Shown here in pieces: positions 53,650 through 54,662 of a DNA stretch of 64,000 nt (position 1 is the stretch's first letter; each line of letters starts with the position of its first letter). Both the position numbers and the translations under genes were made by a program. Location: IMG/VR virus record IMGVR_UViG_3300032242_001844; one strand, given 5' to 3'. The notes beneath the pieces are model-generated. The model ran no database searches. It was not told where the DNA came from and saw only the letters and a program-made list of their open reading frames with translations. The DNA comes from a virus.

Positions 53650-53726
53650 GCGACCTTAGCTTAACGGTTAAAGCGGGTGTCTCTAAAACACCGACAATGT
53701 GGGTTCAAATCCCATAGGACGCACCA
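53650..53726 (+). tRNA. Amber-suppressor tRNA (anticodon CTA)
   Basis: GCGACCT/AGGACGC acceptor (one A-A mismatch), GCTT/AAGC D-stem with GG, GGTGT-CTCTAAA-ACACC arm, GTGGG-TTCAAAT-CCCAT, encoded ACCA. Confidence 0.9.
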
Positions 53727-53748
53727 AATATTTAAAAAGGAAAAGAAA

Positions 53749-53928
53749 ATGAAAATTACTAAAGCAGAAGTTAAAGTTAATCCAGAAACATTTCAACCAG
53801 TTATTGCATTTGAAGGTTATCTTACTATGGAATTGGCGAAAGAAAATGCTATGACCGAAGAAGAAGCTACTATTAATCTTGGAAAAAATTTAACAGAACA
53901 AATCCAAAAATTATTAAATACCAAATGA
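53749..53928 (+). CDS. Small hypothetical protein
   Basis: AAGGA SD before ATG 53749; the track start at 53677 lies inside the tRNA. Confidence 0.6.
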   Translation: MKITKAEVKVNPETFQPVIAFEGYLTMELAKENAMTEEEATINLGKNLTEQIQKLLNTK

Positions 53929-54083
53929 AATCAACAGCACGACATGTAGGCAGCGTAAATTTGCGAGGCAAAAAATCTCTTACTTTACGCTGTCGCTGCT
54001 GTGAAGCACAGAACTTTAAAGATCGTGAACTAAAGCGTGAACACCTAAAACAAATTAAACAGGAGAAAGAAAATATGTCATAG
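53925..54083 (+). CDS. 52-aa basic Cys-containing protein ending in TAG, in frame with the next gene
   Basis: ATGA-coupled; MKSTARHVGSVNLRGKKSLTLRCRCCEAQNFKDRELKREHLKQIKQEKENMS*. Confidence 0.55.
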   Translation: MKSTARHVGSVNLRGKKSLTLRCRCCEAQNFKDRELKREHLKQIKQEKENMS

Positions 54084-54662
54084 GTAGAATTAGCATGTAA
54101 AGAAGCAGTGTTTCATTTTAACAAGAAACATTTAGAAGACCCAACAATCCCAATGTGGATTATTATGGCCAAAGGCAAAACATATTATGTTGACCATGTT
54201 GAAGCCAACTTGCCTTGGACCACGAAAGAAACTCCAACCAATGTAAAAACCAAAGGCGCAATCAAGTTTAAAGATTGCCTTGTCACAATTGATGGTGATA
54301 ATTGTGCAAAACTTACTGTTCTCACCAAAGCAGATGCGGCAAGGTTGCGCAACGCAGAGCGTGGCATTACTCGTATTATTACCAAATTTGGTGCATCACT
54401 TACCGAAGTATTAAACTCTCTTGACATCAAACATACACCTATTAAACGCATAGGTGGTGGATGTGGCAGTAGTTTTTATATCACTGATATTATGAAAGAA
54501 GAAGATATGACGCTGCTTTCAATATCAATGATTGGAAAAGGTGACTTTCGTATTCTTATACCAAATGAAGCATATTATGGTTGGTACGATAATGGCAATG
54601 CAGATGATATGGACGAAGATGAAAAATTATATGATTATGATGACGATGATGAATATGCTTGA
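54075..54662 (+). CDS. Hypothetical protein whose SD-led start has an in-frame TAG at codon 3 (otherwise GTG start at 54108)
   Basis: AGGAG 54061-54065, ATG TCA TAG GTA GAA TTA GCA TGT AAA GAA GCA GTG TTT CAT..., continuous with track ORF 54108..54662. Confidence 0.7.

Follow-up and report, generated by a model that had tools for sequence, protein, structure and literature searches.

A 64,000-nt stretch of viral DNA (IMG/VR record IMGVR_UViG_3300032242_001844; hereafter the window) carries on its + strand a gene whose third codon is an in-frame TAG, and which lies about 350 nt downstream of a tRNA with the matching anticodon CUA. We consider it likely that this gated gene is an obligate suppressor-dependent phage gene, with a predicted output of 195 aa tied to the linked tRNA(CUA); very probably, the protein is made only when this tRNA overrides the stop. 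An earlier analysis of the window's letters (the sequence-only reading) had proposed that this one gene is held by an amber lock, which the CUA tRNA of the phage itself opens. The proposal is now strongly supported, as the gate is kept among relatives, is always TAG, and has a same-strand tRNA nearby.

At the start of the gated gene, a Shine-Dalgarno (SD) sequence, AGGAG (54061-54065), stands 9 nt before a two-codon leader, ATG-TCA (54075-54080, fMet-Ser), which has counterparts in relatives and leads into the gate codon TAG (54081-54083, codon 3), with G as the next base. The codons GTA GAA TTA GCA TGT AAA follow, in frame with the open reading frame (ORF) of 184 aa that translation table 11 places from GTG 54108 to 54662. 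An SD-ATG-TCA-TAG start in frame with that ORF was therefore correctly described before. The whole gated gene spans 54075-54662 (+ strand) and encodes Met-Ser-X plus 192 residues, ending at a TGA stop (54660-54662). Besides the probable source, contigs from three freshwater metagenome runs cover 54081-54083 with no other letter, and contigs of relatives from an RNA library also carry TAG at the gate. Independent contigs thus read TAG, not CAG, at the base that had been marked for checking (54081), and neither assembly error nor editing is indicated. This RNA library (X19) provided low-depth contigs of relatives in which only the tRNA and the gene start were covered; as it may contain DNA, it was not used as evidence of expression.

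To follow the gate among relatives, we scanned viral sequences and a genome collection. The first viral scan recovered 10 relatives at 51-94% protein identity, all with an SD-ATG-(TCA or GCT)-TAG start and a tRNA(CUA) 50-700 nt upstream. Two profile-driven viral scans, seeded on the long form of the protein and on a short single-domain form, added 160 loci, and the genome collection added four contigs of metagenome-assembled genomes (MAGs). These four were the only matches in bacterial and archaeal genomes, with no sign of prophage or host copies. The pooled set comprises 176 viral loci representing 112 distinct gene sequences. TAG stands just upstream of the conserved first strand of the protein in 111 of the 112, at codons 2-13, and neither TAA nor TGA occurs at the gate position in any of them; locus L019 has ATG where the others have TAG. 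An in-frame ATG precedes the TAG by 1-12 codons in 109 distinct genes, and the leader measures two codons in 75 of these. The SD core ends 6-8 nt ahead of the ATG in 82 of the 109, and TAG is followed by A in 95 genes, by G in 13 and by C in one. Synonymous sites in the region are near saturation (proportion of synonymous differences, pS, 0.59-0.96), yet the G of TAG never becomes A. A mere stop would have drifted to TAA under such divergence. The long and short forms, about 50% identical, share the same single TAG site, and the combination of TAG and linked tRNA recurs in more than 100 diverged loci. Judged from these comparisons, the site is ancient and stable in standard-code genomes, and the TAG is neither an assembly error, a pseudogene nor a chance event.

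The codons downstream of the TAG bear directly on where the protein begins. In a rival account, ATG-TCA-TAG would be a two-codon mini-ORF, the protein would start at GTG 54108, at Met24 or by re-initiation after the stop, and the tRNA(CUA) would be unrelated. Table 11 gene callers do start the frame at GTG 54108 in the window and at the Met of a PMW motif in about 25 database clusters, and in most relatives the codon after TAG is ATT, a rare start codon. A mini-ORF would, however, tolerate any stop, and all 111 stops are TAG, though TAA dominates in these AT-rich genomes. In 49 of 109 genes, the stretch from TAG to the invariant FHFNK motif offers none of the start codons ATG, GTG and TTG. The GTG at 54108 has no SD, as the sequence-only reading had stated, and where it is present in relatives it encodes a conserved Val. 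The codon after TAG is GTA in the window and ACT or AAC elsewhere, none of which is a start codon. The ratio of nonsynonymous to synonymous differences (pN/pS) is 0.31 for the eight codons between TAG and the motif, 0.10 for the next fifteen and about 0.14 gene-wide, so that the eight post-TAG codons are themselves under purifying selection. They also form part of strand 1 in an AlphaFold (AF2) model numbered from the codon after TAG, which reached a predicted local distance difference test (pLDDT) score of 91 with a 142-sequence alignment; an earlier run with 7 sequences was poor (pLDDT 64). Strand 1 comprises residues 2-12 at pLDDT of about 97, and a start at GTG 54108 or Met24 would therefore cut into or remove it. 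Homologues likewise extend N-terminally, and the family does not start at the VFHFNK position. A mini-ORF would also leave the specific, co-oriented CUA tRNA unexplained, and we regard this account as quite improbable. Codon constraint and the predicted structure together argue that the codons after TAG are translated, as expected of a gated gene.

The second component, the tRNA, is linked to the gate across the family. Among the 68 long-form loci with full flanks, 59 have a same-strand tRNA(CUA) no more than 3 kb upstream (median distance 623 nt), and 11 of 17 short-form loci have one as well, placed upstream, in overlap with the gene or immediately after it. None of the linked tRNAs lies on the opposite strand. 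Neighboring protein genes are not conserved, the most frequent one being found in 21 of 64 loci, and no terminator was predicted on the + strand between the tRNA and the gated gene of the window. The reverse test was a viral scan seeded solely on the CUA anticodon loop and T arm, which gave 93 tRNA(CUA) loci confirmed by ARAGORN. A gene for the N-terminal domain of the gated protein (N-domain) or for a PTH2-like hydrolase was found on the strand of the tRNA in 23 of the 36 loci that had flanks of 2.5 kb to either side. Within the whole tRNA-seeded sample, a start of the form ATG-short leader-TAG was present in 18 of 24 N-domain genes and 14 of 25 PTH2-like genes. Putative lock, putative key and their linkage are thus all conserved.

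The tRNA of the window (53650-53726, + strand, 77 nt) is an amber-suppressor-type elongator tRNA. ARAGORN and Rfam (RF00005, 60.4 bits against a gathering score of 29) bear out the complete CUA cloverleaf reported earlier at this position, with the anticodon loop CUCUAAA, a G1-C72 pair, A73, an encoded CCA and an A4:A69 mismatch. Linked tRNAs of the family are very diverse in sequence: in an alignment of 76 distinct ones, compensatory changes were seen at 17 of 18 stem pairs, and all 76 keep CTA and G1-C72. By this pattern the tRNA(CUA) is real and evidently maintained by selection. ARAGORN labels such genes 'tRNA-Pyl' because the anticodon alone determines that label; we rejected it on tRNA architecture, with no search made for the pylS and pylBCD genes of the pyrrolysine system, since the linked tRNAs have a standard D loop with GG, a variable loop of 5-6 nt and a canonical GGTTCRA T loop, and not the small D loop, 3-nt variable loop and non-canonical T loop of tRNA-Pyl. 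Some CUA tRNAs with unusual D arms were missed by ARAGORN (L045:~2875-2955, L051:~2240-2320, L092:~2620-2700) and recovered with a simple pattern made of the anticodon loop and T arm; standard finders therefore underestimate how many suppressor tRNAs phages carry.

The same tRNA features bear on whether the TAG could be a start codon read by an initiator-type CUA tRNA or, failing that, a plain assembly or sequencing error. UAG initiation by an initiator tRNA with a CUA anticodon is known from engineered E. coli. The linked tRNAs, however, all carry G1-C72 in place of the 1:72 mismatch of bacterial initiators, they do not have three G-C pairs in the anticodon stem, and a canonical SD-ATG lies just upstream of the UAG. 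As to error, TAG recurs in independent runs and in more than 170 contigs. Both versions strike us as scarcely credible next to an elongator tRNA that would decode an internal UAG.

The window derives from a large freshwater phage that encodes the ribonucleotide reductase large subunit NrdA, helicases and tail-fibre-like proteins, together with four RNA genes (ARAGORN), and it uses the standard code without global recoding. The 102 ORFs of at least 100 aa in the window end in TAA (64), TGA (26) or TAG (12), and ORFs gain no more length when TAG is taken as sense than when TGA is. These counts agree with the earlier statement that the genome is not globally recoded. Other TAG-terminated genes of the window have extensions of 3, 13, 28 and 157 codons past the TAG, none evidently programmed. 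A scan of all 64 kb for an SD-ATG-short leader-TAG-long ORF arrangement, which had been put forward as a check, returned the gated gene as the sole case, bar one trivial ATG-TAG overlap. The window thus encodes a suppressor tRNA(CUA), as recoded phages do, and shows neither the many in-frame TAG genes nor the table 11 fragmentation of code 15.

These observations also bear on two alternatives: that the genome is partway through a wholesale reassignment of TAG (code 15), or that the gene is decaying and happens to be rescued by the tRNA. Phage suppressor tRNAs are best known from recoded phages, and a standard-code phage with a newly acquired suppressor, noted in the literature as a possible precursor of recoding (10.1101/2021.08.26.457843), would fit such a stage. 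In the window, however, an in-frame TAG is confined to this one gene, and its presence at the same site in long and short forms and in more than 100 lineages indicates a stable state. Decay is excluded by the gene-wide pN/pS. We therefore hold a transitional or decaying gene to be very unlikely, and the snapshot of incipient code-15 evolution that had been entertained is not borne out: this is a single ancient TAG, stable in standard-code genomes.

The gate TAG also closes an upstream, lineage-specific ORF of 52 aa (53925-54083, + strand), as had been noted and as the ORF list confirms. The functional product could accordingly be a 245-aa fusion, made by read-through of the TAG as the stop of this 52-aa ORF. 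The upstream frame is open into the same TAG in the window and in L004-L009, and its pN/pS of about 0.17 against L004 speaks for such a fusion. In L010-L012, however, stops interrupt the frame only a few codons from the ATG, and it is open for at least 40 codons in only 10 of the 109 distinct genes. What is conserved is the SD and an ATG 1-4 codons before the TAG, not the upstream frame. The fusion is therefore at best a peculiarity of a sub-lineage and a minor extra product, and as the main output it appears unlikely. Of the two products proposed by the sequence-only reading, the 195-aa protein is upheld by the conserved ATG-TAG start, while the 245-aa form is not.

The gated protein is predicted to consist of two domains and a tail. 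Its N-domain (54084-54323, + strand) is an all-beta unit of about 80 aa with the motif FHFNK...PMW...TKETP.N..TKG, and in the AF2 model its first strand begins right after the TAG. The C-domain (54363-54605, + strand) is modeled as a ferredoxin-like beta-alpha-beta-beta-alpha-beta fold (ACT/RRM-like; AF2 and VIA-align), followed by an acidic disordered tail (up to 54659, + strand; pLDDT <50). In VIA-align, the best score for the C-domain (residues 94-174) lies in the generic range (Z 7.5; 6lpi_E, root-mean-square deviation (rmsd) 3.5, 79 aligned). Rows of ACT domains score at about Z 7, as in 5uyy_A (Z 7.0, rmsd 2.1, 65 aligned), which is the range of a common arrangement and comes with no sequence-family match. 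A Foldseek search of the Protein Data Bank (PDB) with the model gave no match at E<=1e-3, a PDB sequence-profile search gave noise only, and the ESM Atlas gave no usable match. In BFVD only uncharacterised relatives were found. Pfam, PHROG, NCBIfam and PADLOC assigned no family to the gated protein or its neighbors, and the PTH2 profile PF01981 has no match in the gated protein of the window (Pfam, NCBIfam). A profile search of 1.84 billion representative proteins yielded 160 relatives at E<=1e-3, all unnamed.

Several observations weigh against a gene that is simply gated by its linked tRNA. Nine of the 68 long-form loci have no tRNA(CUA) within 3 kb; their contigs represent 3-45% fragments of genomes that must exceed 300 kb, and the absence therefore says little. 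Similarity to 170 other phage tRNAs favored no isotype for the tRNA of the window. Structure searches, by which the N-domain is scarcely covered, assigned it no fold, and the purpose discussed below is drawn from analogy and domain fusions. Two relatives, P0015 and P0022, have lost the TAG, yet they lie 140-150 nt behind a tRNA(CUA), and P0002 has neither TAG nor a nearby tRNA(CUA). Gating therefore does not fully account for the linkage, and some lineages can do without the gate. Because the TAG-less P0015 and P0022 still sit behind a tRNA(CUA), the data suggest that the job of the protein is connected with the tRNA, beyond borrowing it for expression.

An association with PTH2 points in a similar direction. 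In relative P0075, a PTH2 domain (PF01981, E 1.6e-7) is followed by the N-domain, and in L127 the order is reversed, with a TAG-gated N-domain followed by a PTH2-like domain (recognized by eye and BLAST). In L161, a PTH2 gene (PF01981, E 1.8e-5) is immediately upstream of the N-domain gene. Locus L019 combines an amber-gated PTH2-like ORF (2349-2726) with a TAG-less FHFNK gene about 600 nt downstream (~2998-3576). That ORF matches the PTH2 gene of L161 at E 4e-11, and two distinct tRNA(CUA) genes occur on the contig of L019, some 8 kb upstream (L097:~960-1035 and 1357-1433). PTH2-like hydrolase genes are often amber-gated beside a tRNA(CUA) themselves. Given fusions in both orders as well as adjacency, the N-domain would therefore work with a peptidyl- or aminoacyl-tRNA hydrolase-like activity.

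Among cultured phages, the N-domain is found in only 4 of 50,697 phage records. Rhizobium phage RHph_I1_18 (MN988519) has an unannotated frame of 76 codons behind an ATG, four codons and a TAG (codon 6), and an annotated 'tRNA-Pyl(cta)' starts 14 nt past the stop of that frame. In the jumbo phages Atu_ph07 and Phosso, the latter a Sinorhizobium phage, the domain has no stop and forms the C-terminus of an approximately 175-aa protein, whose gene comes two genes behind one for PTH2. In Phosso, a tRNA(CUA) lies 5 kb upstream, among synthetase genes; for Atu_ph07, the published paper reports an opal suppressor tRNA, not an amber one. When cultured phages were searched at the DNA level with the locus and its surroundings (2.4 kb), no match appeared. 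In Phosso, the first tRNA(CUA) lies between a gene for cysteinyl-tRNA synthetase (CysRS) and a truncated gene resembling that for seryl-tRNA synthetase (SerRS), and the second is followed by 1.3 kb of unannotated DNA with no long forward-frame ORF (446807-448102; L107:2308-3603).

Taken together, these data point to a one-codon lock with its own key. Ribosomes would initiate at the SD-led ATG, form fMet-Ser and reach the UAG at codon 3. There, they would either terminate with a harmless dipeptide or, if a charged tRNA(CUA) decodes the UAG, continue to give the 195-aa protein, so that protein output would follow suppressor activity. That the tRNA is charged and suppresses UAG is inferred. With the stop at codons 2-5, failure would be cheap, as its product is merely a di- to pentapeptide. 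A purine after the stop makes a good suppression context in E. coli, and the purines found after TAG are confounded in this respect, since the codon there specifies a conserved Ile, Val or Thr. The residue inserted at UAG is probably unimportant, because the gate lies in a variable N-terminal stub and L019 has an initiator Met in its place.

Two purposes for such a lock appear plausible by analogy. The protein may be a factor that copes with UAG read-through and is supplied by feed-forward, or it may act as a feedback governor of the suppressor, as with prfB and infC. We favor a reading in which the protein and the PTH2-like hydrolases would form a module for the suppressor tRNA or for the consequences of UAG read-through, with the gated gene possibly as the sensor arm of a circuit that follows such read-through. 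Like the sensor codons of prfB and infC, the early UAG would make the dose of the protein follow suppressor activity. A fully self-tuning circuit, in which the UAG is the sensor and the FHFNK protein and PTH2-like hydrolases act on the suppressor tRNA or on stranded ribosomes and peptidyl-tRNAs, is a tentative extension that we hold possible and rather doubtful. If true, clean-up or governor machinery would be made in proportion to the strength of UAG suppression, which would amount to a natural feed-forward or feedback controller of genetic-code ambiguity and would provide the 'orphan' suppressor tRNAs found in standard-code phages with a defined regulon.

The gate shares features with several known systems. 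Suppressor tRNAs are encoded by recoded phages in which TAG specifies Gln (code 15), including crAss-like, Lak and other phages (10.1101/2021.08.26.457843; PMC9523058). There, as proposed for the gated gene, the presumption is that a CUA tRNA from the phage overrides the UAGs of its genes within a standard-code host, and read-through is thought to control which genes are expressed. Code-15 phages, however, have in-frame TAGs in tens to hundreds of mostly late genes, and their coding density collapses under table 11, whereas the window has one such gene in 64 kb, with a single TAG at codon 3, a physically linked tRNA, and TAG as a stop elsewhere. Autogenous sensor codons are known from prfB (release factor 2), with an in-frame UGA at codon 26, and from infC (initiation factor 3), with an AUU start. 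In these genes, too, an early conserved 'wrong' codon makes output depend on its decoding, and the conserved early in-frame stop of prfB has its counterpart in 111 of the 112 distinct genes. The +1 frameshift of prfB has none, as the frame continues straight through the TAG: the gated gene would be decoded in frame by a dedicated tRNA. Moreover, the prfB product is itself the factor that reads the codon, whereas a link of the gated protein to UAG decoding is hinted at only by circumstantial signs, the PTH2 fusions and neighbors and the tRNA linkage that persists in TAG-less relatives.

Synthetic amber-suppressor gates and feed-forward loops also express an early-amber gene only when a suppressor tRNA is present (PMC7969014; PMC11669171). 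Unlike these engineered parts, the gated gene would be a natural, evolutionarily conserved counterpart. In viral programmed read-through, as in Q-beta A1 and retroviral gag-pol (reviewed in PMC8310308), translation similarly continues past an in-frame stop. Classical read-through, however, relies on leaky decoding by near-cognate tRNAs of the host where a functional ORF ends, and gives two functional proteins, whereas the gated gene has its stop at codon 3, a dipeptide as the upstream product and a cognate suppressor next door. Two-codon minigenes of the lambda bar type act by sequestering tRNA and are linked to peptidyl-tRNA hydrolase. The gated start resembles them in its strong SD, ATG, one sense codon and stop, and in the link to peptidyl-tRNA hydrolase through the PTH2-like domains fused or adjacent in relatives. 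It differs in that bar minigenes have no coding sequence after the stop, whereas the gated frame runs into a conserved protein and its stop is always UAG.

A full-text literature search found no description of a conserved gene-specific amber gate with a linked phage suppressor tRNA. The recoding literature deals with genome-scale reassignment (10.1101/2021.08.26.457843), and although suppressor tRNAs recur in phages with the standard code, one genome note states that it identified no targets for the suppressor tRNA of its phage (PMC9022506). We rate the finding as phage suppressor-tRNA-dependent decoding narrowed to one codon of one gene, where it would serve as a switch. A suppressor tRNA of a standard-code phage would thereby gain a specific, conserved and physically linked target, and one stop codon could serve regulation over very long periods while the rest of the code stays as it is. 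The gate would also explain the mis-annotation of the family, with table 11 cutting the start short and code 15 placing a spurious Q. The SD-ATG-NNN-TAG start with its tRNA would be a compact natural part for translational gating, and RHph_I1_18 offers a cultured system in which the roles of phage suppressor tRNAs and their PTH2-like partners can be probed.

Public protein collections hold family members translated with TAG as Q (P0003, P0007, P0033, P0036; L094). The look-up for the database homologue P0036 reports 'with_TAG=Q'. We therefore rejected the Q at the gate position of P0003, P0033 and P0036 as evidence for Gln, and the Q in P0003, P0007 and P0033 is probably the same artefact of code-15 gene calling. 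In three short-form loci (L148, L149, L156; ~2973-2981), TAG comes immediately after the start codon (ATG-TAG-ATT), and a suppressor would there decode codon 2 with the initiator tRNA in the P site. Genes resembling homing endonucleases lie directly upstream of the gated gene in four loci (L014:2329-2994, L081:2313, L120:2317, L187:2208-2972). They were recognized by a NUMOD3 motif and HNH_3 (E 3.5e-11), and their start is also ATG-GCN-TAG; they look as if the gated start had been copied or captured at insertion.

The window has further features around and beyond the gated gene. Between the tRNA and the gated gene lies a small ORF of 59 aa (53749-53928, + strand), with no Pfam or PHROG match and no conservation in the family at large. 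A promoter close to consensus, TTGACA-17-TACAAT, overlaps the stop of the gated gene (54659-54895 region, + strand). After this promoter, an ORF-free RNA of about 200 nt (54688-54895) is predicted to fold strongly (minimum free energy -59.7 kcal/mol). It has no Rfam match, and since its conservation is limited to the closest relatives (77-89% in L004-L009) it was rejected as a part of the module. Elsewhere on the + strand, two ORFs of 173 and 158 codons (17607-18125 and 18126-18599) share a frame and are split by a TAG followed by T, so that read-through would give a fusion. As the second ORF has its own ATG four codons in, the common frame is probably due to chance. Lastly, a permuted transfer-messenger RNA (tmRNA) of the alphaproteobacterial type is encoded at 45381-45728 (+ strand; RF04321, 101.8 bits; RF01849, 87.3 bits), 8 kb upstream of the suppressor tRNA, with the tag peptide ANDNNAYDLRLAA. 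That a phage promoting stop-codon read-through should also carry a ribosome-rescue tmRNA may be no coincidence.

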